A stretch of DNA of 64,000 nucleotides from Elusimicrobiota bacterium (GTDB lineage: Bacteria; Elusimicrobiota; Elusimicrobia; Elusimicrobiales; UBA9959). Positions 9,024 through 21,259 of the stretch are shown one piece after another (position 1 is the first letter of the stretch; each line of letters opens with the position of its first letter). The position numbers and the translations under genes were made by a program. The stretch spans positions 25,429-89,428 of the forward strand of contig DAIENX010000002.1 in the NCBI GenBank assembly GCA_027340875.1. Reading direction: 5' to 3'. The notes below the pieces were generated by a model, which saw only the letters and a list, made by a program, of their open reading frames with translations, ran no database searches and was not told the DNA's origin.

Positions 9024-9273
9024 TGGGACTTTCCGTCGGAAAATCCTCTATATTTATTGTGCAACATGGGGGGGCCGCTGTAAACAAGAACGGTCAACAG
9101 CGGGATTGAATTTAGTCAGGTCCCGGGGGGGAGTATGGTCAAGCCGCGCCCTGCCTTCGCCTGGCGCGCTGACGGCAAGGATATCCGCTTTCGGTCCCCC
9201 CGGTCCGGTCCCCAGATAACTGGATTTGTACGATATTTGGCCTGCCCGGGCAAGTAGCCTGTCGCGGTTATTC

Positions 9274-9279
9274 TATAAT
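9274..9279 (+). promoter_or_regulatory. candidate -10 box (TATAAT) for tlyA, 8 nt before the ATG
   Basis: Exact TATAAT. No clear SD between it and ATG 9288, so the mRNA is possibly leaderless. Confidence 0.35.
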
Positions 9280-9287
9280 AGTCAGGT

Positions 9288-10019
9288 ATGAAGAAGCGCT
9301 TGGACGTCGCGTGCGTGGAACTGGGGCTTTTCGAAAGCCGCGAGAAGGCCCTGCGCGCCATAATGGCGGGGCTGGTCATCGTCAACGGGAAGCCGGCCGA
9401 CAAGGCCGGCATGCCGGTGCGGGACGGGGACGTGCTGGACCTGGCCGCCCCCGGCTGCCCTTACGTCTCCCGCGGGGGGCTGAAGCTGAAAGGGGCATTG
9501 GAGGCCTTCGGGCTGGAGCCCGCGGGCAAGATCTGCCTGGACGTCGGCGTGGCTACCGGCGGTTTCACCGACTGCTTCCTGCAGGCCGGCGCTTCCAGGG
9601 TCTACGCCGTGGACGTAGGCGAGGGCCAGATCCACGAGAAGATAAAAGCCGACCCGCGCGTGGTCTTCATGCCGCGCACGAACGCGCGCTTCCTCAAGCC
9701 GGAGCTTTTCCCGGAGAGGCCGGAACTGTGCGCGATAGACGTCTCTTTCATCTCGCTGAAGCTTATCCTCGGGCCAGTTCTGTCGGTGATTGCTCCCGGA
9801 GGGAAGGTAATAGCCCTGGTCAAGCCGCAGTTCGAACTGCAGCCTTCTGACCTGCGCAAAGGCATCGTAAAGGACGAGGAGACAAGACTGGGCGTGATGG
9901 TCTCCATGAGGGCTTTCCTTGCGGGATCCCTGCCCGGCGCGCAAGAACTGGGCCTGAGGGATTCTCCTATAAAGGGCGCGAAGGGGAACCTCGAGTTCCT
10001 CTGGCTGCTGGGTGTTTAA
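9288..10019 (+). CDS. tlyA: TlyA-family rRNA 2'-O-methyltransferase (hemolysin A-like)
   Basis: 243 aa. N-terminal S4-like RLDVACVELGLFESREKA, YVSRGGLKL, the SAM motif CLDVGVATGGFTDC and a VDVSFISL motif. Confidence 0.85.
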   Translation: MKKRLDVACVELGLFESREKALRAIMAGLVIVNGKPADKAGMPVRDGDVLDLAAPGCPYVSRGGLKLKGALEAFGLEPAGKICLDVGVATGGFTDCFLQAGASRVYAVDVGEGQIHEKIKADPRVVFMPRTNARFLKPELFPERPELCAIDVSFISLKLILGPVLSVIAPGGKVIALVKPQFELQPSDLRKGIVKDEETRLGVMVSMRAFLAGSLPGAQELGLRDSPIKGAKGNLEFLWLLGV

Positions 10020-10035
10020 TAGCTTCCCCCCGGAG

Positions 10036-10075
10036 GAAAAAAGAAAGGGCCCCTTCCGGGGCCCTTTCTTTTTTT
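10036..10075. terminator. bidirectional rho-independent terminator between convergent tlyA and lipoprotein genes
   Basis: An 11-bp stem GAAAGGGCCCC / GGGGCCCTTTC with loop TTCC, flanked by an A-run upstream and a T-run downstream. Confidence 0.8.
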
Positions 10076-10087
10076 AGGCTGTACGGC

Positions 10088-10825
10088 TTAGTAGCACTGA
10101 CCCTGGTAGGTATAGATCTTCTCGGTCTCGACGGACTTGCCGGTGTAGCTGCCGAGCGTCTGATCGCCCTGCACGAACCCGGCGGCCAGGTCGCGCGTGG
10201 TGGTCTGGAAGTGGAAGGTCACGTTCTGGTGGCCCCACTGGGTGACCCACTGGGTGTAGCAGTTGGGGACGTGCGGAGGCTGGCCCTGGAAGTCGGGGGT
10301 GTGCACCGCGACCGGGTTGGGCACGGAAGGAGCCTGGCGGCTGCCGATCTCGTCCTGGCCGAGGCCGGCTTCCAGCGTCTTGGAGGCGGCGGTCTCATTG
10401 GACTTAAGGGCGCGGCAGATGGTCTCCGGGCGCTGGTAGGTGCAGGACTCCCAGCCGGACTGGTCGGCGGAGTTAGTGACGACGGTCTTCATCGTGCCCT
10501 TCAGGCCGAAGTTCTGGCCGATCTGGGCGGGGGTGAGGTCGAAGGTCTCGCCGATGTTGATGTTCTTGTCGAAGCTGATCTTGACCTTGGTGGGCTGGTC
10601 GGCGTTCTTGATCTCCAGCGTTATTTCCTTGTTGTTGCCGGACTTGCCGATGACGGCCTTGGTCTGGAACTGGCCGGGATTGATGGTCACGATCGCGCGG
10701 TTCTGGTTGGCGAAGGTCACAGGCGAAGTCAGGTCCAGCATACCGCCGAAGTTGATCTCGTTGCAGCCGACCAGGACGGCCATCATGGCGGCGATCCCGA
10801 GGCTGGATATTATCTTCTTGTTCAT
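10088..10825 (-). CDS. hypothetical lipoprotein
   Basis: 245 aa. Signal peptide with lipobox LVGC (MNKKIISSLGIAAMMAVLVGC) and SD AGGAGAG upstream. No family recognised. Lys/Asn/Thr/Gln-rich composition, unlike its neighbours. Confidence 0.7.
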   Translation of the reverse strand: MNKKIISSLGIAAMMAVLVGCNEINFGGMLDLTSPVTFANQNRAIVTINPGQFQTKAVIGKSGNNKEITLEIKNADQPTKVKISFDKNINIGETFDLTPAQIGQNFGLKGTMKTVVTNSADQSGWESCTYQRPETICRALKSNETAASKTLEAGLGQDEIGSRQAPSVPNPVAVHTPDFQGQPPHVPNCYTQWVTQWGHQNVTFHFQTTTRDLAAGFVQGDQTLGSYTGKSVETEKIYTYQGQCY

Positions 10826-10931
10826 CTTTTAACTCTCCTCATTGCTTACCGTATTCTGCTTCCCCTTAACCCGATCATCGATCACTGGGGTACCTTCCAT
10901 TAGACAAAATAGCGCGGACCCTGCATAGCGT

Positions 10932-10981
10932 CATAGGACCTATGCGCAAGTAGGTAAATGGTCCTATGCCGGGATAGGACC
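10932..10981. promoter_or_regulatory. cluster of ATAGGACC-type sites (one 13-bp palindrome plus two half-sites) in a divergent promoter region
   Basis: CATAGGACCTATG at 10932-10944, GGTCCTATG at 10960-10968 and ATAGGACC at 10974-10981. Confidence 0.35.
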
Positions 10982-11068
10982 TTCGGGCAAAGGTTCCCGG
11001 CGGCCGGCAACTATCCGAGCGCGGAGAAATAATAGTATCATGAGGCTCTAGGGCAGACCTTCATTAAT

Positions 11069-12235
11069 ATGGCGACGAAAAGACAAGGCCCCGCATGCGT
11101 GGTCTGGGAGCTGACGCTGGCCTGCAACCTCAAATGCCTGCATTGCGGCTCCACCGCGGGAGGGCGCCGCGAGGCCGAGCTTTCCACGGCCGAGGCGCTC
11201 GAGCTCTGTTCCGGCCTTAAGGAGGCCGGCTGCGGCGGCGTGGCCCTTATGGGCGGCGAGCCGCTGTTGAGGAAGGATTTCCCGGCCATCGCATCCAGGG
11301 TGAGGGAGCTGGGCATGGAGCTCTCCGTCATCACCAACGGCACGGTGCGGCCTGACGGGATATTTACCCTGCTGAAGAGCCTGGGCCCCAGGGCCGTGGC
11401 CATAAGCCTGGACGCGGCCGGCCCGGAGCTGCACGACCGGATACGCGGGGTCCCGGGCGCGTTCGCCAAGGCCTCTTCGTTCATCGAAGACGCGCTGAAA
11501 GCCGGCCTGCCGGTCAGCGTTATCACCACGGTGCATAAACTCAACATCTCCGAGCTTCCCGGGCTGCGCGATATAATAAAAGGAAGGGGGATAGCCTGGC
11601 AGGTGCAGACCGCCGGCGCGGAAGGCGGCCGTTTCTCGCGCGACCTGCTGCTGGACCAGGAGGAGTTCTATTCCGTCGGGATGTTCGTGGAATCCTGCCG
11701 CCGCGAATATTCCCCGGAGGAGCTCCCGGTCATAGGCGCCCATGACCTCGGCTACCATTCCCTGCTGCTGAAGAACGTCTCGCTCTACGAGAAATGGGAG
11801 GGCTGTCAGGCCGGCGTCTCGGTGGCCGGCATACGCAGCGACGGCGGCGTGCTCGGTTGCCTGGCGGTCAACGACGACCGCTTCGTGGAAGGCAGCGTGC
11901 GCAGGGAGCCGTTCCAGGCCATCTGGAGCCGGCCCGGCGCGTTCTCCTACGCGAGGGATTTTTCGCCCGGGAAGCTGGGGGAGAACTGTGCCGGCTGCGG
12001 TCACGCCGAGACCTGCCGCGGCGGCTGCAGCGAGATGTCGCTGATGAAGACGGGCCGTCCGCACAACGATCCCTATTGCTTCCGCGCCATAGAGGACAGG
12101 CTGTTCTTCAAAGGTCCCGGAGGGGCCGTCAGGAAGCTCGGCGCCTCTATCGCCGCCGGCCGCGGACGTGCGCCGTTCGGCCGGCTCGGCCGGATATTCT
12201 CGGGGAAAAGGGGGGAGGCCGGTGGAGACAGATAA
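11069..12235 (+). CDS. radical SAM protein with SPASM domain
   Basis: 388 aa. CNLKCLHC (CX3CX2C) at residues 19-26, GGEPLL, a twitch/SPASM region GCQAGVSVAGIRSDGGVLGC ... CAGCGHAETCRGGC. Confidence 0.8.
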   Translation: MATKRQGPACVVWELTLACNLKCLHCGSTAGGRREAELSTAEALELCSGLKEAGCGGVALMGGEPLLRKDFPAIASRVRELGMELSVITNGTVRPDGIFTLLKSLGPRAVAISLDAAGPELHDRIRGVPGAFAKASSFIEDALKAGLPVSVITTVHKLNISELPGLRDIIKGRGIAWQVQTAGAEGGRFSRDLLLDQEEFYSVGMFVESCRREYSPEELPVIGAHDLGYHSLLLKNVSLYEKWEGCQAGVSVAGIRSDGGVLGCLAVNDDRFVEGSVRREPFQAIWSRPGAFSYARDFSPGKLGENCAGCGHAETCRGGCSEMSLMKTGRPHNDPYCFRAIEDRLFFKGPGGAVRKLGASIAAGRGRAPFGRLGRIFSGKRGEAGGDR

Positions 12236-13202
12236 GGGCATACGCCTGAACCTGGGCTGCGGATATAACAGGCTCGAGGGCTGGCTTAACGCCGACGCCA
12301 GTCCGTACTCCGCGGCGGACCGCGTGATGGAGGCCCAGGACCTGGAGTTCGGGGCCTCGTCCGTGGAGGAGGTGAAGGCCCTGCAGCTCGTGGAGCATCT
12401 GGGCTTCTTCAGGACCAAGTATTTCCTGTCGGAATGCTGGCGGGTGCTGAAGCCCGGCGGCCGGCTGACGATAGAGACCCCGGACGTCGACGCGGCCTTC
12501 AGGGCCTATCTCGCGGGCGGTCACTCCGAGAAGGAGTCAGCGCTGGGCTGGATATTCGGTCCGGAGAGCCCGGGCATGCATCACCTCTACTGTTTCCCGC
12601 GGGAACTGCTGGCCGAGCTGCTCGCGGAGGCCGGCTTCTCCGTGGAAAAGCAGGAGGGCTTCCTGTTCCAGCCGTCCCGGCCGGCGCTGAGGTTCTCGGC
12701 CGTCAAGAAGGAAGGAGAGAAGGCTGCCCTTAATTCCGCCCTGCGCCGCCGCCTGCTGGACAGGGGGTTGGCCGCGTTCACGCGGGAGGAGGAGAGCGCG
12801 GGGCTGGAGCTGGCGGTGCGGAGGCTGGTGGCCGGCGGCGGGAATTCCGCGGCGGAGCTGGAGCAGGCCCTGATCAGCGCCCCGGCGGCCCTGGAGTATT
12901 TCGCGCTGGTGGAGGAGAACGAGCCGCGTCCGTCGCGCGAGGCGGCGGCCTGCGGCAGGCTGGCTTCCTGGTCGGCGCAGGGCAGGCTGGCGGCCGCGTT
13001 CCTGGAAGGGCTGCGCGGCGGGCTGGACGAGAACGCGGCGTTCTCGGCGGCGGAGTCGCTGGGCCGGCGCCTGCTCGCGGCCCCCCTGGAGGGCGGCGTC
13101 GAGCCGCCCGGGCCAAGGCCCCTGAACGGCGCCCCGGCGGCGTTCACTTTCGGCGCCGTTTCCGCCTGGGCTTTCCGCGAGAAGGCAGGCGGCAGGCGCT
13201 GA
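12222..13202 (+). CDS. class I SAM-dependent methyltransferase (Methyltransf_11-like) with an Ala-rich C-terminal extension
   Basis: GTG 12222 is preceded by GGGGAGG and overlaps the radical SAM gene by 14 nt. Motifs LNLGCGYNRLEGWLNAD, LQLVEHL and LKPGGRLTIETP. The C-terminal ~170 aa have no recognisable domain. Confidence 0.6.
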   Translation: METDKGIRLNLGCGYNRLEGWLNADASPYSAADRVMEAQDLEFGASSVEEVKALQLVEHLGFFRTKYFLSECWRVLKPGGRLTIETPDVDAAFRAYLAGGHSEKESALGWIFGPESPGMHHLYCFPRELLAELLAEAGFSVEKQEGFLFQPSRPALRFSAVKKEGEKAALNSALRRRLLDRGLAAFTREEESAGLELAVRRLVAGGGNSAAELEQALISAPAALEYFALVEENEPRPSREAAACGRLASWSAQGRLAAAFLEGLRGGLDENAAFSAAESLGRRLLAAPLEGGVEPPGPRPLNGAPAAFTFGAVSAWAFREKAGGRR

Positions 13203-13261
13203 GGCGGTTCCCCGCTGGAGAGAAAATTAATAGAATTCTGTCGTATCCTGGAGGTGGAGAG

Positions 13262-13576
13262 GTGAATATGAAGAAACTTTTAGAGCTGGGCGCGAAGACG
13301 GGCCTGACCAAGGCCGAAGTGAACCGTGTGGCGAGGTTCGGGCTGCTGGGCCTGCTGGCCGTGGGCCTGGCCGGCATAGCGGGCTGCTTCAGGGCTCAGA
13401 AAGCGGAGGCGCCGCAGAGCGCCGATAAACCGGGCACTCTGCAGGATATAGTCAGCTCGGTGAACAAGAGCACCGGCGCCGCGCAGGGCCAGGACAACTG
13501 CGGTCCTTACCCGGGCTACCCCTGCGGCACCCGGTATTACACGGTGAGCGTTTCGGATTTCCGGCGGTCAGCCTGA
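13262..13576 (+). CDS. small lipoprotein with Cys/Pro/Tyr-rich C-terminal tail (candidate modified peptide)
   Basis: 104 aa (GTG 13262; alternative ATG 13268). GGAGG at 13250-13254 and TAGAAT at 13231-13236 upstream. Hydrophobic segment ending in lipobox IAGC. C-terminus NCGPYPGYPCGTRYYTVSVSDF. Confidence 0.5.
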   Translation: MNMKKLLELGAKTGLTKAEVNRVARFGLLGLLAVGLAGIAGCFRAQKAEAPQSADKPGTLQDIVSSVNKSTGAAQGQDNCGPYPGYPCGTRYYTVSVSDFRRSA

Positions 13577-14505
13577 TGAGGGCCTGGCTGCTTTCCGTTC
13601 TTTTCCTGCTCCCGTCGGCGGCGGGCGCTTTCGACTGCCCGGCCGCCGGGGAGAAGCCGGAAGACTGCCCGTGGGCAGGGGTCGCCAGGCTGGCGGCCGG
13701 CGGAGCGGATATCGCGAAGACCCTCCGGGAGCATGCGCCGGGCCTGCTGGCCCAGGTGGACGCCGACAAGGCCAACGGCCGCCTGCTCGGTCTCTGGGGG
13801 GAGAGCATCAACTACGACGAGCTGGCCGAAGGCCAGATCGTAGACCCCGGCATACTTGCTTTCATAGCCGCGCGCCTGGGCGCCCCCGCGCCGGACGGCA
13901 GGATCATGCACGCCGGAGCGGAGCACACCTACGGCTATCTTTTCAGTCTCCTGCCGACGAAGTTCGGCTTTAAAAGGGCGCGCTGGGTCCGGCCTGACAT
14001 CGAGGACGGCCTGGGGCTGCCTCGCGGCACGGCGGGACCTTCTCCGTCGTCCGGCACGCTGCTCTCCAACGTGACCTGCATAGCCGGCGGCATAGCCCTC
14101 CGGGACGACCCGCGAGCCTTCGCCTCGCTCAGGGAGGCCGGCGCTTCCTGCGCCCCCGCGGCGCGGCGCTTCATCGAGGCCGGGGCCGGGCGCGTCAGGC
14201 TCACTGAGGACGTCGGTCTGCCAGGCGGCAGGACGGTCTCGCTGCGCACCGATTTCGTCCGTTTCGCGAAGAGCTCCGGCACCAACTCGCGCCTGCTGAT
14301 CTACTCCGTCAAGGATTCCGCCGCGGCCCATGCCTACCTGGTCACGGCCTTCCCCGTAAGCGAGGAATTCGAGGAGAAGGCCACCGCCCGTTCCGGCCTG
14401 GGGACCGATAAGCCGGTGCAGACCCGCTACAACGCCTTCGTCCGCGGCCTGACCGGCGCCGGCAGGTTCAAGGGCCGGCGAAGCGCGGCTAAACTGGAAA
14501 AATGA
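13576..14505 (+). CDS. secreted hypothetical protein
   Basis: 309 aa. Signal peptide MRAWLLSVLFLLPSAAGA. Its ATG overlaps the upstream TGA by 1 nt. No family recognised. Confidence 0.55.
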   Translation: MRAWLLSVLFLLPSAAGAFDCPAAGEKPEDCPWAGVARLAAGGADIAKTLREHAPGLLAQVDADKANGRLLGLWGESINYDELAEGQIVDPGILAFIAARLGAPAPDGRIMHAGAEHTYGYLFSLLPTKFGFKRARWVRPDIEDGLGLPRGTAGPSPSSGTLLSNVTCIAGGIALRDDPRAFASLREAGASCAPAARRFIEAGAGRVRLTEDVGLPGGRTVSLRTDFVRFAKSSGTNSRLLIYSVKDSAAAHAYLVTAFPVSEEFEEKATARSGLGTDKPVQTRYNAFVRGLTGAGRFKGRRSAAKLEK

Positions 14506-15989
14506 GGGGACTGCTTCTTCTGCCGCTGCTGGCCGCCCTGTCCGGGTGCGGCGGCTTCTATTCGGTCAGGGTGCCTTACCGCCTGCCGGCCAGCCCCGCG
14601 GCCGTTTCCGCCAGGCCGGCTTTGGGAGCGCTCTATCTGGTGCTGGTCCCTCCCGAAGGGGCGGCGGACAGGGAGCCCGGCCTTGCCGGCCTGCTCGGCA
14701 GACAGGGCCCTGACATGGACCTGCCTGCCCTCGCCGGGGCAGCGGCCGCCGCCATCAGGACCCCTTCGGTAAAGGTCTGCGCCTGGAACGTGGAAAGGGC
14801 CAGCGCATCGGCCGGCGCCTTCGCCTCCCGGTTCAGTCCCACCGGCCTGCTGGAGATATCGCTCTCGAGGCCGTCCATTTCCTCCGGGAAGGAGGAAAGG
14901 AGAGTGACCGTGACGGAGAAGGGGAAGAGCCGTCAGGTCAAGAGCAAGGTCTGGGTGTATACCGCCGTAGTCGGAGCGGACGTGAGGCTGTTGTCCTGGC
15001 CGGACCGGCGGCAGCTGGACAGCTGGTCGGATTCCGAGACGGTGTCCGAGGAGCGGGTGGACGATTCCCGCGATCCGGAGGACTGGTATTCCGGGTGGGA
15101 GGACCGGCTTTTCAAGGAGCTGGCCGGTAAAGTCGCCGCCAGGTACTCCGGGCGTACCGTGTTCAGGTCGCGCCCCCTGTTCGCCAAGAACAAGGACAAA
15201 CTTTCGGAGAAGGCCCTGGCGCTGGCGCGCTCCGGGGACTGGAGCGGCGCCGCGGCCATCTGGCGCGAAAGAGCCGCCGCCGGCGGCGGCTGGCGCGACT
15301 ATCTCGGCCTGGCGGTGGCGTCCGAGCTTTCCGGGGACCTTCCTGCCGCCCGCGGCTATTACGACCGCGCCAGGGCCGCCTCGGGCGGGGGAAAGGCCGC
15401 GTCCTCGGTGCGCTGGGAAGAAATATTCGGCGACATCGATTACGCCTCCTCGGCCCCGCCGGAGCGCGCCTGCGACGATTCCTGGTTCGGGGTGAAGACC
15501 GTCCTGCTGCCGTTCTCCGACGAGACCAACAGCGTGGACGGTCCGCCGCTGGTCAGGCAGCTGGTCTACGACCGGCTGAGGGAGGCCGGCTACGACCTGG
15601 TGCCGCTGGAGGCCGCGGACGAGGCCCTCAGGCGCCGCGGCTACAGCGACGGAGGCCAGCTGGCGGCCGCCAGGCCGGAGGAGATCGCTGCCTGGCTGGG
15701 CGCCGGCCGCCTGATATACTGCGATATCAGCGACTATGGCGAGGTCATAGCCGGCGTATACAACAGGCGCATGATAGCCGGCACGGCCAGGATATGGGAG
15801 AAAGGGGCGCCGGAAGTCTCCATCCGGGAAAGCGTGATAAAGATAAGCACGCAGAAGAGCCTGCTCGGCGGCCTCGCCTCACAGCTGGCCAGGGGACTGA
15901 TGGAGAGGATCGGGAACAAGCCGTTGGGCCTTGAGGCGGGTCTTTTCGCCAGGCAGCTGTCATCCGACCTGCCGGCCATGTCCAGATAG
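14502..15989 (+). CDS. lipoprotein with C-terminal DUF799/GNA1162-like domain
   Basis: 495 aa. Lipobox LSGC and an ATGA overlap with the upstream gene. The C-terminal segment VLLPFSDETNSVDG...REAGYDLVP...GAGRLIYCDISDYGE fits the DUF799 pattern as I recall it. Confidence 0.5.
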   Translation: MRGLLLLPLLAALSGCGGFYSVRVPYRLPASPAAVSARPALGALYLVLVPPEGAADREPGLAGLLGRQGPDMDLPALAGAAAAAIRTPSVKVCAWNVERASASAGAFASRFSPTGLLEISLSRPSISSGKEERRVTVTEKGKSRQVKSKVWVYTAVVGADVRLLSWPDRRQLDSWSDSETVSEERVDDSRDPEDWYSGWEDRLFKELAGKVAARYSGRTVFRSRPLFAKNKDKLSEKALALARSGDWSGAAAIWRERAAAGGGWRDYLGLAVASELSGDLPAARGYYDRARAASGGGKAASSVRWEEIFGDIDYASSAPPERACDDSWFGVKTVLLPFSDETNSVDGPPLVRQLVYDRLREAGYDLVPLEAADEALRRRGYSDGGQLAAARPEEIAAWLGAGRLIYCDISDYGEVIAGVYNRRMIAGTARIWEKGAPEVSIRESVIKISTQKSLLGGLASQLARGLMERIGNKPLGLEAGLFARQLSSDLPAMSR

Positions 15990-15996
15990 GAGCGGT

Positions 15997-17277
15997 TCAG
16001 CCGCGCTCGAATACCAGCAGCGTCTCGGCGTGAGGGGTGTTCGGGTAGAAGTCGAAGCCGGCCGAACGGGTCAGTTTGTATTTCTCCAGGAAGAAGGCCG
16101 CATCCCGACCCTGCGTTATCGGGTTGCAGGACAGGTAGATGATCTTCTTCGGCAGTATCTCCATGATGCGCTTTATGACCTTGTTGTGCAGGCCCGCGCG
16201 CGGCGGGTCCAGCACAAGTATGTCCGTGCCGTCGAAGAGGTTCTCCTTTGCCTTTTCGGAAAGCGAGCAGACCGTCTCGAAATTCCTCGCGCCGTTGGCC
16301 TCGGCGTTCAGCGCCGCGTACTTGGCCGAGCTGCCCGAGGCTTCCACCGCCAGCACCTTGTCGGCCAGGTCGCGCAGCGTCAGGCCTATAACGCCTACCC
16401 CCGAATAGAGGTCCACCAGCTTGCCGCATTTGAAGGCGGCCGCCCTTATCTCCTTCAGCGCCTCCGTGAACAGCTCGATGTTGTTCTGGAAGAAGCAGTC
16501 GAAGCCGTAGGAGAACTTCCCGCCGAGTATCTCCTCGGTGACGAAGTCGTCCCCCCAGGACTTCATGATGCCGTCCACCTGGCTGACCGAGCTGACGGGG
16601 TTGGAATAGATGGCCAGGAAGCCGTTGAGACCCTCCACCTTCATGTCGGGGAGCTGTATATCCTGCCTTTTCAGGAACAGGGCAGCCACGCGCGAGCCGG
16701 GGGTCTTGGCCTCGCGGATTATCAGCGTTTTGAGATCCGCCGTAGAAAGTTTCAGGGAGTTCAATATCTCCAGTATCCTCTTCGCGGCGGAGTTCGTTTC
16801 GGGGCTGATCAGCGCGCAGCCCTCGGGCAGCAGGTACTTCTCCCGGTAGTTGCCGCGCTTGTGGAAGGCGAAGGAAAGCGAGCCCGGTTCTCCGGTGAAG
16901 CTGTACTCTATCTTGGTCCGGTAGCCGTACGTCCTCTCGGCGCCGTAGAACTTGTCCAGCCGTATGGTCTCCTTCGTGGTCTGGTAGAGGAGGTCCTCTA
17001 TCAGGGCTTTCTTGGTCTCGCACTGGAAACCGTAGTCCATGACCTGCCACGGTGAACAGCTGAGGTAATGGTCCTCCTTAGGGGTCACGCGGTTAGGCGA
17101 AGGGGTGATTATCTCCAGCAGCTCGGCCTCCGCGAAGTTTCTCTTCTCGAAGGTGGTCCTGACCCGAGCGGTCTCGCCCGGCAGCACGCCGTAGCAGAAG
17201 ACCACCTTGCCCTCGCTGCGGCCTAGCGCCTTGCCTTCCCCTACTATCTTCTTGAATTCCAGCGTTATCTCTCTCAT
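15997..17277 (-). CDS. RNA (uracil-C5)-methyltransferase, TrmA/RlmD family
   Basis: 426 aa. N-terminal TRAM-like beta region, SAM motif LVDLYSGVGVIGL, LVLDPPRAGL and the catalytic YLSCNP motif. Confidence 0.75.
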   Translation of the reverse strand: MREITLEFKKIVGEGKALGRSEGKVVFCYGVLPGETARVRTTFEKRNFAEAELLEIITPSPNRVTPKEDHYLSCSPWQVMDYGFQCETKKALIEDLLYQTTKETIRLDKFYGAERTYGYRTKIEYSFTGEPGSLSFAFHKRGNYREKYLLPEGCALISPETNSAAKRILEILNSLKLSTADLKTLIIREAKTPGSRVAALFLKRQDIQLPDMKVEGLNGFLAIYSNPVSSVSQVDGIMKSWGDDFVTEEILGGKFSYGFDCFFQNNIELFTEALKEIRAAAFKCGKLVDLYSGVGVIGLTLRDLADKVLAVEASGSSAKYAALNAEANGARNFETVCSLSEKAKENLFDGTDILVLDPPRAGLHNKVIKRIMEILPKKIIYLSCNPITQGRDAAFFLEKYKLTRSAGFDFYPNTPHAETLLVFERG

Positions 17278-17389
17278 CGGTGTCCTGCCTTGCCCTCCCC
17301 CGGGCGGACTGCGGGGAGCGGCTGTTGTTCGTGAGGCTCAAAAAACGACGGCTAATATACTACAATACTTGGGGGGACGGCTCCCAATA

Positions 17390-18568
17390 ATGGACCTGTA
17401 CAGCGCGCTTATCAAGATCGACATCCAGCGGGCTTCCCGCGGCTTTCTGCTGAGCCTCGCGTCCGCCGCGCTGGTCCTTAACCTCTCCACCTCGTGGAAG
17501 ATCTTCGGCGGGGTGCCGCTGCGCGAGGCGGCCTCCCGCTCGCTGATGGCGGTGAATTCCTCTTTCTTCTACGATTCCGGCCTCTCGGAGCCAGTGCCGG
17601 TGGCGGCCCTGAAGGCCGGCATGCTTACGGGGGCGGACCCGGACCGGGTGGTCAGGGCCGAGGGCCTGGCTGCCTTAGCGGCGCTGTTCCTGGCTACCCT
17701 TTTCGTGCTCTGGAAGCGCTACGGCGATGCGGCCGCGTCGATGGCCGCGCTTTTCCTGGCGGCTAACCCGTATGCCGGCTACTACGCGATGCAGGGCGCG
17801 TCGCATCTGTACGCCCTTTTCTTCCTCCTGCTCTTCTGGCATTATTTCGACAGCCCGGAAGGCGGAAACCGCCACGCGGCGTTTGCGGGCGTCGCGGGCG
17901 GGCTGGCCTGTCTCAGCAGGCTGGATTCCGCCTGGGCTATGCTGATAATAGCCGCCCTTACCCTGGCGGTGAGGCGCGGGGGGCTGGACCTGAAGCGGGC
18001 TGGCCTTTCATTGGGCCTGGCGCTGCTGCTGTGCCTGCCGTACCTGGCCTGGCAGAAGTCACGGTACGGGAGTTCCATGTATTCGCAGGAGATATCCCTG
18101 AGACGTTGGGATAATGTCGACCGCTTCGGCTATGCCACCGGAGCAAAACGGGAACAGGGCCCGCTCCGGGTGACGGAGTTCGTTTTCCGCAACGGCGCCG
18201 CCGGTCCGCTGAACGACTCCTTCCGCGGCCTGGGAAGGGCGCTTTCCTATGAACTGCCCAAGACACTTTACTACAAGCCGCTGCTGGTGCTGGTCTTTCT
18301 CGGCGTATACGCCGGGTTCCTGCGCAAGAAGGACAGGCTTCTTTTCCTGCTGGCGGCGGTGCTGCTGCCGGTGCTGCCGCTGGCGGCCATCAACGAAGTC
18401 CCGTCCAGCGGCGGTATAGAGCTGAGCTATTATCTGCAGACGCTCTGGGCGCTGTGCGCGCTGGCCGGGCTTGGCCTGCAGGAGACCATGTCCTGGCTAG
18501 AGGAGTCCGGCATTAAATGGGCGGCTTCGCTGGCGGAGCGCGAAAGAAAGCACGGGAGGAAAAGGTGA
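17390..18568 (+). CDS. polytopic membrane protein, possibly a GT-C fold (ArnT/PMT-like) glycosyltransferase
   Basis: Start at MDLYSAL (Met62 of ORF 17207..18568), downstream of TACAAT at 17361-17366. Many predicted TM helices. The family call is weak. Confidence 0.35.
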   Translation: MDLYSALIKIDIQRASRGFLLSLASAALVLNLSTSWKIFGGVPLREAASRSLMAVNSSFFYDSGLSEPVPVAALKAGMLTGADPDRVVRAEGLAALAALFLATLFVLWKRYGDAAASMAALFLAANPYAGYYAMQGASHLYALFFLLLFWHYFDSPEGGNRHAAFAGVAGGLACLSRLDSAWAMLIIAALTLAVRRGGLDLKRAGLSLGLALLLCLPYLAWQKSRYGSSMYSQEISLRRWDNVDRFGYATGAKREQGPLRVTEFVFRNGAAGPLNDSFRGLGRALSYELPKTLYYKPLLVLVFLGVYAGFLRKKDRLLFLLAAVLLPVLPLAAINEVPSSGGIELSYYLQTLWALCALAGLGLQETMSWLEESGIKWAASLAERERKHGRKR

Positions 18569-19512
18569 AAATTCCAGTAAAGCACAAGTTCATCGCCGTC
18601 GTGGCGCTGATGTTCCTGCTCCCGTTCCTGCTGTTGAGCAGGCATTTCGTCTACGGCGAGCGGGAGATCCAGCAGCGGGACACGGTAGCCTACCTGGAGC
18701 TGCGCACCGTCACGGCCGCCTCGATCATCTCGGACGTGCTCAACCTGAACTACAGCCTCAACCGGATAGCGGGGCCGGAGGTCCAGTCCGGGGCGCAGGC
18801 CGTAAAGAAAGAGCTGGCTGCGCGCGTCAAGCAGAACCCTTTCGTCTATTCCGAGCTCGCGCTGCTGTCCGTTTCCGGTTCCGAGCTCGCCCGGTTCTCC
18901 GCGTACAAGGAGCCGGGGCCGCGGCTCGACTACGCCAAGAGCGACGTCTTCGCGGCGGCCAAGAAGACCTCCTCCCCGGCCGGGGCCGTGGAGTACGGGG
19001 AGTATACCCCGCCTGCGCTGGTGCTGACGGAGCCGCTCTACCGCAACGGCACGCCGGCCTATTACGCCGCCGGCCGTCTGAGCCTCGGCTACCTGGGAGA
19101 GGTCGTGCGGACGATGGGCCGCAATTCCCGCGGCAGCTTCGGACTGGTGGACATGGGCGGGCAGGTGATAGCGGATTCCCAGAGCATGTCCATAGTCCGC
19201 CCCGGGCTGAAAGCGCCTCCGGAGGTGCTCAAGATGGTCGCCGTGGCGGCCGGCAGGGAGTCCAGCAGCTTTTCCGGGGAGGCGAGCTTCCGCGGCAGGA
19301 CCCTGCTGGCGGCCGTGGCCAACGTCCCCGGCTCTATGTGGTGGGTATATGAGATAGTCGACCCGGCCCGATTGCCTGCGCGCACCGGATCGTTCTGGGT
19401 CTGGCGGGTGGTGCTGTCCGGCGTGGGGCTGATCATCGCGTTCAGCGTAATAACCTGGATGCTGGCCATGCGCTGGCTGGCCGGTGGCGATACCGGGTCC
19501 GCCGGCTCCTAG
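18565..19512 (+). CDS. membrane-anchored Cache-like periplasmic sensor domain protein without an output domain
   Basis: GTG 18565 overlaps the upstream TGA (GTGA) and GGGAGGAAAAG lies upstream. Layout is TM1, a ~270-aa extracytoplasmic region (..GSFGLVDMGGQVIADSQ..) and TM2, ending ~15 aa later. Confidence 0.45.
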   Translation: MKIPVKHKFIAVVALMFLLPFLLLSRHFVYGEREIQQRDTVAYLELRTVTAASIISDVLNLNYSLNRIAGPEVQSGAQAVKKELAARVKQNPFVYSELALLSVSGSELARFSAYKEPGPRLDYAKSDVFAAAKKTSSPAGAVEYGEYTPPALVLTEPLYRNGTPAYYAAGRLSLGYLGEVVRTMGRNSRGSFGLVDMGGQVIADSQSMSIVRPGLKAPPEVLKMVAVAAGRESSSFSGEASFRGRTLLAAVANVPGSMWWVYEIVDPARLPARTGSFWVWRVVLSGVGLIIAFSVITWMLAMRWLAGGDTGSAGS

Positions 19513-19680
19513 GAGCCTGTCCGGCATAAGGCTTTCATGCGTGAAATTGACGATTTTGTTGACGAGCCGAAGCGACGCGAGGCGAGCATCCTCGAAGAGA
19601 GGCTGTGAGCAGAGCGGCGCAAAGGCGCAGGCCAAAAGCGGAAATTGCAGGCGAAATTGCTTATGTCGGACCGGCTCCTA
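19510..19680. repeat. 171-bp element bounded by 21-bp imperfect terminal inverted repeats (MITE/REP-like or structured 3' UTR)
   Basis: The left repeat TAGGAGCCTGTCCGGCATAAG (19510-19530) matches the reverse complement of CTTATGTCGGACCGGCTCCTA (19660-19680) at 19 of 21 positions. The interior is lower in GC and carries GAAATTG three times (19543, 19641, 19653). Confidence 0.5.
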
Positions 19681-19701
19681 AGGGCGTTTTTCCGGCCCAT
19701 G

Positions 19702-19710
19702 TGCTATAAT
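19702..19710 (+). promoter_or_regulatory. extended -10 promoter element (TGcTATAAT) upstream of the GH13 gene
   Basis: TGCTATAAT lies 50 nt upstream of ATG 19760. Confidence 0.4.
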
Positions 19711-19759
19711 TGAACCGTGAGGGCGCCCGCCGCGCAGGCCGCGGGCCGATAAACAGGTC

Positions 19760-21259
19760 ATGCTCCGCTCCAATCCGCACCTGATAGAGATAAACGCCAG
19801 GCTGTGGCTGAAACAGCTCAGGGCCAAGTATTCCCAGCCTGAGCTGACGCTCTCGTCCATCCCTGACGACGAATGGCTGCAGCTTCGCCATCTTGGCATC
19901 GACATAGTCTGGCTGGTGGGCGTCTGGGAGCCCAGCCCGGAATCCGAGCGCATAGCCAGGCAGGACAAGGCCCTGCTGGAAGAGGTCAAGACCATCCCGC
20001 CGGGCTTCGGGCCGGAGGACCTCTGTTCGTCCCCTTACTCCATCCACTGGTACCGCCTGAACCAGGACCTGGGCTTCGAATGGGAGCTCAAGGCCCTGCG
20101 CGAGAAGCTGAATTCCATGGGGATGAAGCTGATGGTGGACCTGGTCTCCAACCACACCTCCAGGGACAATCCTTACATCCGGGAATGCCCGGACTGCTTC
20201 ATACACGGCACGGAGAAGGACTTCGCCGAGCACCCGGACTGGTTCTACGAGATGGAAGGGGGGGACGGCAGGAAGCTCTACATCGCCTACGGCCGTGACC
20301 CCAACTTCCCCGCCTGGACGGACAGCGCGCAGCTCAACTATTTCAATCCCGCCGCCAGGGAGCGGATGCTCTCGGTGCTGATGCGCATAGCGGACATGGC
20401 CGACGGCGTGCGCTGCGACATGGTGATGCTGACCCTGAACGAGATCCACGAGGCCACGTGGGGCTGGCTGCTGGGGCGCAACGGCTACCGCCGTCCGGAC
20501 GAAGAGTTCTGGGACGGGGCGATCCGCGCTGTCAGGGAGAAGCACCCCGAGTTCATCTTCCTGGCCGAGGTCTATTGGGGCTTGGAGTGGCGCGTGCAGC
20601 AGATGGGCTTCGACTATACCTACGACAAGGGCACCTACGACAGGCTCCGCTTCCAGGGGCCCCAGGAAGTGCGCGGACACCTGCGCGCCGAGAAGCTCTA
20701 CCAGAAGCGCTCGGCCCGTTTCATCGACAACCACGACGAGCAGCCCTCCCTTACGGCTTTCGGCCGTCAGAAGGCCATGTCGGCTGCGGTGATAATCTCC
20801 ACCATCAAGGGCCTGCGCTTCTATAACGACAACCAGCTGGACGGCGTTCCGATACGCCCGCCCCTGCAGCTGGCCGGGCTTTATGACAGGCCGTCGGACC
20901 AGGAGGTCCGGAAATTCTATTCCAAGCTGCTGAAGATAACCGATCACCCTGCTTTCCACGGAGGGGAGTGGTCGCTGCTGGAGGTCCGCAAGTGCGACAA
21001 GGAGAACAAGACCAACGCCAATATCCTCGCCTGGTCCTGGGCCCAGCGCCGCACGCTGAAGGTCGTAGTGGTCAACTACTCCGGAGAGCCGTCCTGCGGC
21101 GTGATCAACATCTCCCTCAAGAGCGATGGCGAGACGAAGGCCATCTTCGAGGAGCTGTCCGACAGGTTCTTCTCTTTCAAGGCGGGGGACCTGGCCGGCG
21201 GCCTGCGGCTGCAGGAGATGGCCCCCTATTCGGCCTACATCTTCGACGTGGAATTCTGA
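19760..21259 (+). CDS. alpha-amylase family (GH13) glycoside hydrolase
   Basis: 499 aa. GH13 conserved regions DLVSNHTS (I), GVRCDMV (II), FLAEVYW (III) and FIDNHD (IV). Confidence 0.8.
   Translation: MLRSNPHLIEINARLWLKQLRAKYSQPELTLSSIPDDEWLQLRHLGIDIVWLVGVWEPSPESERIARQDKALLEEVKTIPPGFGPEDLCSSPYSIHWYRLNQDLGFEWELKALREKLNSMGMKLMVDLVSNHTSRDNPYIRECPDCFIHGTEKDFAEHPDWFYEMEGGDGRKLYIAYGRDPNFPAWTDSAQLNYFNPAARERMLSVLMRIADMADGVRCDMVMLTLNEIHEATWGWLLGRNGYRRPDEEFWDGAIRAVREKHPEFIFLAEVYWGLEWRVQQMGFDYTYDKGTYDRLRFQGPQEVRGHLRAEKLYQKRSARFIDNHDEQPSLTAFGRQKAMSAAVIISTIKGLRFYNDNQLDGVPIRPPLQLAGLYDRPSDQEVRKFYSKLLKITDHPAFHGGEWSLLEVRKCDKENKTNANILAWSWAQRRTLKVVVVNYSGEPSCGVINISLKSDGETKAIFEELSDRFFSFKAGDLAGGLRLQEMAPYSAYIFDVEF

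Follow-up and report, generated by a model that had tools for sequence, protein, structure and literature searches.

Radical S-adenosylmethionine (SAM)/SPASM maturases are a main source of new peptide chemistry, and several described systems bear on the operon analyzed here. This operon lies in a 64,000-nucleotide (nt) stretch of DNA from an Elusimicrobiota bacterium (assembly GCA_027340875.1, contig DAIENX010000002.1, positions 25,429 to 89,428), hereafter called the window, and contains genes for a radical SAM/SPASM enzyme, a methyltransferase, a small lipoprotein, a 309-amino-acid (aa) secreted protein, and a 495-aa lipoprotein. Judging from sequence comparisons, the first three genes probably form a maturation system like those of peptides made on the ribosome and altered post-translationally (RiPPs), with the small lipoprotein as the putative substrate.

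In quinohemoprotein amine dehydrogenase, the cytoplasmic radical SAM/SPASM enzyme QhpD modifies the small subunit QhpC, which bears a removable N-terminal leader. QhpC carries Cys-to-Asp/Glu thioethers, is served by a dedicated protease and an ABC exporter, and once modified works in the periplasm alongside larger proteins that are exported from the same operon. Another enzyme of this class, the anaerobic sulfatase-maturing enzyme (anSME), modifies a Sec substrate in the cytoplasm before export; its target motif, (C/S)-x-(P/A)-x-R, sits in a large enzyme that has no leader. In pyrroloquinoline quinone biosynthesis, PqqE acts on PqqA, a short ribosomal peptide with a near-invariant Tyr-containing core, E-x3-Y. 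The curated families TIGR03913 (“GDL motif peptide-associated”) and TIGR04103 (“nif11-class”) also consist of peptide maturases. The cyclopropylglycine synthases TvgB and TigE target a Val or Ile that is conserved within short motifs (TVGG, TIGSVS), which may be repeated, and share a strictly conserved GYW motif, the Tyr of which ligates auxiliary cluster I (PMC10878394).

The locus in the window resembles PqqE/PqqA in that a radical SAM/SPASM enzyme is paired with a short ribosomal product whose Tyr-containing core is near-invariant, and no solved relative is closer than PqqE, whether by sequence (6c8v, E 7.6e-18) or by fold. However, neither a PqqD/RiPP recognition element (RRE) partner nor pqqBCDF genes are found nearby, the core reads Y-x-T-V-S-x-x-D-F, and in the bacterial versions the product would stay on an exported protein. 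It recalls QhpD/QhpC in its putative leader-bearing small substrate and the larger exported proteins encoded alongside, but differs in that Cys is not family-wide, the lipoprotein or Sec signal directly follows the leader, and the large partner proteins are dispensable and lineage-specific. anSME is a structural neighbor (4k37), but here the candidate target is a dedicated small protein with a leader and another core. TIGR03913 and TIGR04103 are the best-scoring curated families, yet the scores are a third or less of their cut-offs and the precursor has no curated peptide model. The T-V/I-S in the core, repeated in peptides of two related loci (L070 and L074), recalls TvgB and TigE. Membership among the cyclopropylglycine synthases was nevertheless rejected, since the enzyme lacks both GYW (G228-Y-H in the window; GYN or GFN in homologues) and an N-terminal RRE. 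We found no description of this system in the literature searched, which was not covered exhaustively, and database names for all of its parts are only “hypothetical” or “radical SAM protein”. We would class it as a variant of radical SAM/SPASM peptide maturation in which the precursor joins a leader to a signal peptide, and for which no curated model exists.

A precursor-like small lipoprotein paired with a radical SAM/SPASM enzyme

The small protein has a four-part layout: a leader-like segment, a hydrophobic signal segment, a linker, and a C-terminal core (Table 1). Signal peptides and lipoboxes of the window proteins were read straight from the sequence, and here the lipobox pattern [LVI][ASTVI][GAS]C appears as I-A-G-C40, so that the protein is a predicted lipoprotein, presumably lipidated at this Cys. 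A hydrophobic segment and lipobox likewise occur in 34 distinct bacterial precursors. None of the 92 homologues of the small protein is named, although 100%-identical database copies of it and of the 309-aa protein exist in an Elusimicrobia metagenome-assembled genome (MAG). The Kunitz/BPTI domain described below aside, Pfam and NCBIfam contain no model that matches the precursors, even at E <= 10, and a profile search among 1.84 billion representative proteins yielded only 53 bacterial-type precursors.

Relatives of the radical SAM enzyme were sought in reference genomes, with each GTDB species represented by one genome; 84 radical SAM loci were fetched and scanned, and the best 80 of 528 genome matches were examined. 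A short precursor gene with leader (KLYELGxKTGLxxxEV) and core beside a maturase, the arrangement expected of a RiPP, is present in about 70 of the 84 loci, with one to five such genes per locus, nearly all on the strand of the radical SAM gene and within a few kilobases of it. Hidden Markov models (HMMs) of the leader and the core, each built from Elusimicrobia sequences only, were searched against the 4516 six-frame open reading frames (ORFs) of the loci. The leader HMM retrieved archaeal small ORFs beside the radical SAM gene at E 9e-6 to 5e-3 (best 9e-6, 1e-3, and 2e-3), and the core HMM retrieved archaeal peptides at E 6e-6 to 5e-4 (best 6e-6, 1e-5, and 2e-4); the ORFs found by the two models are the same.

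The correspondence between the two domains of life extends to individual residues. The bacterial leader, KLYELGAKTGLTxxEVNRV, compares with K[IL]YE[IL]GxxLGL[ND]Kx[DE][IV] at the archaeal N-terminus. At the other end, the core follows Y-x-T-V/I-S-x-x-D-F, which in the window protein is Y90-x-T92-V93-S94-x-x-D97-F98. Among 67 distinct cores, Tyr is present in all 67, Val/Ile in 66, Ser in 64, Asp in 62, Thr in 58, and Phe in 56. The tail as a whole reads CGPYPGYPCGTRYYTVSxxDF in Elusimicrobia and CGGPFPGYPCGTKYYTVSVRDF in Geobacter, and the archaeal C-terminus ends in ...Y[GY]T[IV]S[IV][KN]DF. Both ends of the precursors are thus conserved, and the middle is variable. We place the predicted modification site within the Y90-F98 core.

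What lies between leader and core depends on the lineage. Elusimicrobia precursors have a hydrophobic segment with an invariant lipobox Cys, then a linker with the motif TLQDxxNSVNxST. Those of the Geobacter/Syntrophus/Smithella/Nitrospiraceae type have a signal peptide with a SAQA/GG-type signal peptidase I site followed by a Kunitz/BPTI domain (PF00014, E 1.6e-14). Archaeal peptides, of 57 to 84 aa and encoded by one to five ORFs beside the radical SAM gene, have only a short linker and no hydrophobic segment, two Thorarchaeota peptides with a membrane segment being the exception. The precursor gene also changes place: Elusimicrobia have it downstream of the radical SAM and methyltransferase genes, the Geobacter/Syntrophus type immediately upstream of the radical SAM gene, and archaea on both sides. 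Enzyme and precursor stay paired throughout. Two loci (L066 and L069) encode five paralogous peptides each, and the repeated cores of L070 and L074 are arranged as two or three tandem copies in one peptide. Conserved ends with a variable middle, multiple copies, tandem cores, and persistent pairing are the signature of a ribosomal peptide precursor, which makes the small protein the likely substrate. In a further locus, L071 (6929-9056), two tandem paralogous radical SAM/SPASM genes stand beside four precursor peptides, one of which is on the opposite strand.

The enzyme itself is a predicted peptide maturase. It matches PF04055 at 87.3 bits (cut-off 29.5) and the SPASM domain PF13186 at 27.3 bits (cut-off 21.5). 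The CX3CX2C motif at C19/C23/C26 and seven SPASM cysteines (C246, C264, C307, C310, C316, C320, and C337), arranged in the form C-x9-17-G-x4-C ... C-x2-C-x5-C-x3-C ... C, are invariant in 62 homologues. The best NCBIfam match is the peptide maturase family TIGR03913 (194.6 bits; cut-off 591.75), followed by TIGR04103 (167.3 bits; cut-off 725), both aligned over the full length; the former score is too low for membership among the GDL-motif maturases. Cofactor families score lower: 133 bits against a cut-off of 500 for AhbD, 125.3 against 265 for MftC (TIGR03962), 121 against 515 for NirJ, and 93.5 against 381 for PqqE (TIGR02109). We rejected assignment to any cofactor clade (AhbD, NirJ, MoaA, PqqE, or MftC), as all scores are far below the curated cut-offs, and the precursor core is in addition unlike E-x3-Y of PqqA or the C-terminal GVY of MftA. 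The AlphaFold2 (AF2) model (predicted local distance difference test [pLDDT] score of 88.5) comprises a radical SAM core, a SPASM domain, and C-terminal helices only, and its nearest folds are PqqE, SkfB, SuiB, BlsE, CteB, anSME, and ChlB, mostly RiPP maturases. Neither a Pfam PqqD match nor an N-terminal RRE was found on the radical SAM enzyme, the extension of the methyltransferase not having been modelled. PADLOC gave only generic viperin-like radical SAM matches.

Homologues of the enzyme are 54-87% identical to it in Elusimicrobia, 55-62% in Geobacteraceae, Syntrophus, Smithellaceae, and a Nitrospiraceae MAG, and 46-51% in Thermoplasmatota, Thorarchaeota, and Nanohalarchaeota MAGs. One locus (L050) belongs to a cultured host, Geobacter hydrogenophilus DSM 13691.

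Methyltransferase, neighboring envelope proteins, and operon layout

The second gene encodes a class I SAM-dependent methyltransferase (PF08241, Methyltransf_11; 24.2 bits, cut-off 21.2) with an N-terminal catalytic domain of about 155 aa that carries a GCG motif. An Ala-rich helical C-terminal extension follows, and is also present in archaeal and Geobacter homologues. An alignment of bacterial and archaeal sequences has 30 invariant positions, all of them in the N-terminal domain and including G12-C13-G14, D25, D33, and E58-H59. By homologue alignment, relatives start at MKLNIGCG, about six codons downstream of the GTG at 12222. Neither sequence nor profile searches found a close PDB relative, only generic weak matches; a weak UbiG-like match (E 4.9e-4) and a very weak match to the DVU_1556 methyltransferase family were also noted. 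An HMM of the N-terminal domain has a same-strand match in 72 of the 84 loci, archaea included. We regard the methyltransferase as an accessory tailoring enzyme because it is missing from the other 12, among them a whole subgroup of the Kunitz-type bacteria (L042, L043, L048, L051, and L053), in which the core is YPVSKYG[AG]V[GS][IL]RDF. In five bacterial loci without the methyltransferase, the core Thr is replaced by Ala or Gly; the link between the enzyme and this residue (position +2) is nonetheless weak, because four archaeal loci that lack the enzyme retain Thr.

Other potential tailoring genes accompany the system in relatives. In L016, an insertion of four genes (9154-12210) separates the radical SAM gene from the methyltransferase gene. 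They form two pairs, each consisting of a U32 protein (PF01136), with UbiU and TrhP as the best NCBIfam matches, and a partner of 228-235 aa that matches no family. UbiU and TrhP carry out O2-independent hydroxylations. A gap equal in size, its content unread, lies at this position in three more loci (L007, L011, and L081). Of 20 archaeal loci, 13 (e.g., L067 11342-12724 on the minus strand and L064 5169-6572) encode a PaaK-like adenylate-forming ligase (460-470 aa) with a sub-threshold match to the DVU_1553 ligase family. The U32 and PaaK-like genes fit a multistep modification pathway.

The last two genes behave differently. The 309-aa protein has an ordinary signal peptide, no Pfam match, and 234 homologues, all from Elusimicrobia and none annotated. 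Its AF2 model is confident (pLDDT 90.9), Foldseek found no match to it in the PDB at E <= 0.001, and many of its polar and aromatic residues are invariant. The 495-aa protein has the lipobox LSGC and, near its C-terminus, a GNA1162-like domain (PF05643, 29.6 bits, cut-off 25.9, E 6.3e-7; aa 334-467) that is echoed by a match to GNA1162 itself (PDB 4hrv, E 4.3e-5); its approximately 330 N-terminal residues have no match. The gene for the 495-aa protein is present in 12 scanned loci and in L085-L088, and always follows the 309-aa gene where both are present. A stretch inside the 495-aa gene resembles RT-15 RNA in Rfam at 26.9 bits (E 0.0022), below the gathering score of 82, and this match is probably chance; it is one of only two Rfam matches, both below threshold.

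Most of about 60 bacterial loci show the order radical SAM-methyltransferase-small gene. In 26 loci the 309-aa gene comes next, and 10 have the complete five-gene order. Most radical SAM loci lack the 309-aa and 495-aa genes, and their position is taken by an RDD protein, by ankyrin and PDZ proteins, or by nothing. Conversely, GCA_001799815 (L087/L088) has the pair at the same TlyA...RlmD site without the radical SAM or methyltransferase gene. Directly upstream of its 309-aa gene is a 28-codon relic of a precursor 3' end (L088 5918-6004), which ends in YPRGTRYYTVSLADFRRQA; this relic is evidence of a recent deletion. Because most radical SAM loci lack the pair, and because the pair survives without radical SAM enzyme and methyltransferase, the five-gene operon is two separable modules, one made up of the radical SAM enzyme, methyltransferase, and small lipoprotein and the other an Elusimicrobia-specific envelope pair that does not need the enzymes to be encoded nearby. 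Both proteins of this pair may bind the mature lipoprotein or make use of it.

A conserved Ala/Pro-rich lipoprotein of 56-66 aa (MKK..LFALPLVAL.FA..CKKQEA...) was also observed in some loci (L085 5323-5523, L087 5678-5848, L009 10204-10389, and L010 10203-10400). It lies between methyltransferase and precursor in L085 and L086, and occurs as well in L009/L010, which have no precursor, and in L087/L088, which have the relic only.

ORF lists and sequence reads agree with the preliminary description of the locus as five same-strand genes with tight junctions, and its domain assignments hold in Pfam, where the “DUF799-like” lipoprotein corresponds to GNA1162-like PF05643. The small gene proposed there, of 104 aa after a 59-nt gap, is real, but its start most likely lies at ATG 13268, which gives 102 aa and a 65-nt gap, because all homologues begin MKK(L/F)YELG. 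Direct sequence reading confirmed the junctions and the Shine-Dalgarno-like GGAGGTGGAGAGG that precedes the small gene. The -10-like box placed in the same gap was not recovered: we found no sigma-70 site on the plus strand in 10700-16200, and a simple sigma-70 and terminator search never rose above shuffled controls. The suggestion that this SPASM enzyme modifies a peptide or protein is supported by the best NCBIfam families and the closest folds, which are peptide maturases, not cofactor clades, and gene order, for which conservation in relatives had been proposed as a check, is kept far beyond chance. The combination named there as refuting, a cofactor clade without any kept gene order, did not occur.

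Just upstream of the operon, about 90-135 nt before the radical SAM start, a 50-bp stretch contains three copies of ATAGGACC, two in direct and one in inverted orientation. The whole window has 4 copies, against 1.1 expected; L044, the closest relative, has a single copy at an equal distance, and no other locus has any. The cluster may be an operator site. The divergent gene beyond it encodes a 245-aa lipoprotein with no family match that is kept only in the closest relatives (L005, L006, and L044) and does not appear to belong to the system. The downstream boundary of the operon is set at 15989, because the genes that follow are syntenic across Elusimicrobia relatives; the label “alpha-amylase” for one of them comes from relatives' genes only.

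Table 1. Positions in the window of the operon genes, segments of the small lipoprotein, and neighboring features
Feature	Position	Strand	Description
Divergent lipoprotein gene	10088-10825	-	245 aa
ATAGGACC cluster	10933-10981		Candidate operator site
Radical SAM/SPASM gene	11069-12235	+	388 aa
Methyltransferase gene	12222-13202	+	326 aa; GTG start; 14-nt overlap with radical SAM gene
Small gene, either start	13262 or 13268-13576	+	104 or 102 aa; 59- or 65-nt gap after methyltransferase gene
Precursor-like small lipoprotein	13268-13576	+	102 aa: leader, signal peptide with lipobox, linker, C-terminal core
Leader-like segment	13268-13336	+	aa 1-23, MKKLLELGAKTGLTKAEVNRVAR; common to archaeal stand-alone peptides (alignment, HMM)
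Hydrophobic signal segment	13337-13387	+	Ends in lipobox IAG-C40; Cys40 invariant in Elusimicrobia homologues
Conserved core	13499-13561	+	aa 78-98, CGPYPGYPCGTRYYTVSVSDF (position table, HMM)
Secreted protein gene	13576-14505	+	309 aa; 1-nt overlap (TGATG) with small gene
Lipoprotein gene	14502-15989	+	495 aa; 4-nt overlap (ATGA) with 309-aa gene
RT-15 RNA match (sub-threshold)	15134-15275		Inside 495-aa gene
GNA1162-like domain, PF05643	15501-15902	+	In 495-aa protein
Downstream flank	15997-21259		RlmD-like gene (- strand), 453-aa membrane protein, dCache_1 protein, alpha-amylase; syntenic with many Elusimicrobia relatives

Proposed pathway and alternative readings

Based on these observations, we propose the following order of events. 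The leader, that is, the N-terminal 23 residues, would recruit the cytoplasmic radical SAM/SPASM enzyme, which would modify the core Y-x-T-V/I-S-x-x-D-F, most likely by an intramolecular cross-link or another loss of two hydrogens at the invariant Tyr and/or Val/Ile. The methyltransferase would then add one or more methyl groups, after which the hydrophobic segment and lipobox would route the modified protein through Sec and signal peptidase II would cut off leader and signal peptide at once. The end product would be a short lipid-anchored protein with its modified tail displayed in the envelope, and the fourth and fifth genes would be transcribed together with the others. Conservation suggests where the chemistry takes place: Tyr, Val/Ile, and Asp-Phe are the best candidates for the radical SAM reaction because they are universally conserved. 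Modification would take place in the cytoplasm, since no signal peptide was read in either the radical SAM enzyme or the methyltransferase and the enzymes depend on SAM and reduced Fe-S clusters. As the bacterial leader is the N-region of the signal peptide, both would come off together in the cut by signal peptidase II (or I), which would explain why the window operon encodes no leader protease. We consider the order of modification before export, with its signal peptidase steps, about as likely as not.

One candidate chemistry was discarded. The Cys/Pro/Tyr tail singled out in the preliminary description is indeed part of the conserved core, but a thioether (sactipeptide/ranthipeptide) on its two cysteines, as the family-wide reaction, does not hold: Cys is missing from most cores in archaea and from those of L054, L058, and L059. 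Because Cys is not conserved in archaea, a thioether cannot be the shared reaction.

Several observations weigh against a RiPP-like maturation system. The missing RRE lowers the strength of the claim without excluding it, RREs being common among RiPP systems and not universal, and leader recognition is left unexplained by an enzyme that has no recognizable RRE or PqqD domain and whose cluster motif begins at residue 19. Fourteen of the 84 loci have no nearby precursor, several of these being on short contigs, and in L009 and L010 the radical SAM and methyltransferase genes are followed only by the unrelated Ala/Pro-rich lipoprotein. Passage of a cross-linked tail through Sec is plausible only if the ring is small. 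Finally, a near-invariant core is unusual for antimicrobial RiPPs and points to a conserved cellular role.

We weighed this RiPP-like reading against others. That all five genes form one obligate envelope machine, with the modified lipoprotein as a subunit or cofactor carrier working with the 309-aa and 495-aa proteins, is in our judgment unlikely. Such a machine would be comparable to quinohemoprotein amine dehydrogenase, in which the small subunit, once cross-linked by its radical SAM/SPASM enzyme, joins larger exported subunits. In its favor, short overlaps tie the precursor gene to the two genes after it, gene order is fixed (four genes in 26 loci, five in 10), and the 309-aa protein combines its many invariant residues with a confident, unmatched fold. 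Against it, the enzyme and precursor do without the pair in most lineages (Geobacter, Syntrophus, archaea, and many Elusimicrobia), and in GCA_001799815 the pair has outlasted the enzymes, with only the 28-codon relic of the precursor left. We give still less weight to a scheme in which the radical SAM enzyme and methyltransferase make or alter some small molecule, for example a cofactor, lipid, or nucleoside, and the small protein is a neighbor, membrane partner, or regulator. Leader-plus-core peptides track the radical SAM gene across phyla despite changes in gene order, multicopy and tandem-core peptides would make no sense as partners, and the cofactor-family scores given above (AhbD, NirJ) are far below their cut-offs. 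Such a scheme would fit an enzyme unusually conserved for a RiPP maturase (46-51% identity between bacteria and archaea) and without an RRE domain, the appearance of heme and heme d1 enzymes among sub-threshold NCBIfam matches, and the loci with no detectable precursor.

The preliminary description had raised the possibility of an envelope-targeted modification pathway and listed three exported products. We retain the idea for one exported protein, the likely target; the three products are not equivalent. It seems to us very improbable that the two enzymes modify the 309-aa and 495-aa proteins as well. They share the operon and are exported, but regular-expression scans of the window for leader and core find the small gene only, and both proteins, confined to Elusimicrobia, are absent from most radical SAM loci and are retained as a pair after the enzymes are lost. 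The 309-aa protein is probably not a substrate.

A more specific and quite unlikely version of the RiPP-like reading concerns the product, which might not be an antibiotic-type peptide but a cofactor or reactive group that derives from the peptide, stays tethered to the protein, and is built without oxygen. The Tyr core would be cross-linked by the radical SAM enzyme, ring-hydroxylated in some lineages by the UbiU/TrhP-like U32 proteins, and O-methylated by the methyltransferase. The resulting quinone-like moiety would sit on a lipoprotein in Elusimicrobia, on a secreted Kunitz protein in the Geobacter/Syntrophus type, and on free peptides in Thermoplasmatota. This version fits a core that is near-invariant across two domains of life, PqqE as the closest solved relative, and a methyltransferase that is weakly UbiG-like; the hosts, judged from their names, appear to be anaerobic lineages, which also fits.

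The RiPP-like system ranges over at least three bacterial lineages and Thermoplasmatota archaea. A core that is near-invariant between bacteria and archaea suggests a fixed product with a conserved cellular role, as opposed to a diversifying antimicrobial. With the bacterial leader fused upstream of a lipoprotein or Sec signal, a housekeeping signal peptidase would double as leader peptidase and yield a modified protein of the envelope, in Geobacter one with a Kunitz domain. Given how short the peptides are, they are amenable to direct co-expression and mass spectrometry. If true, this reading would tie RiPP enzymology to the maturation of lipoproteins and secreted proteins and would provide a defined substrate for finding a new reaction.

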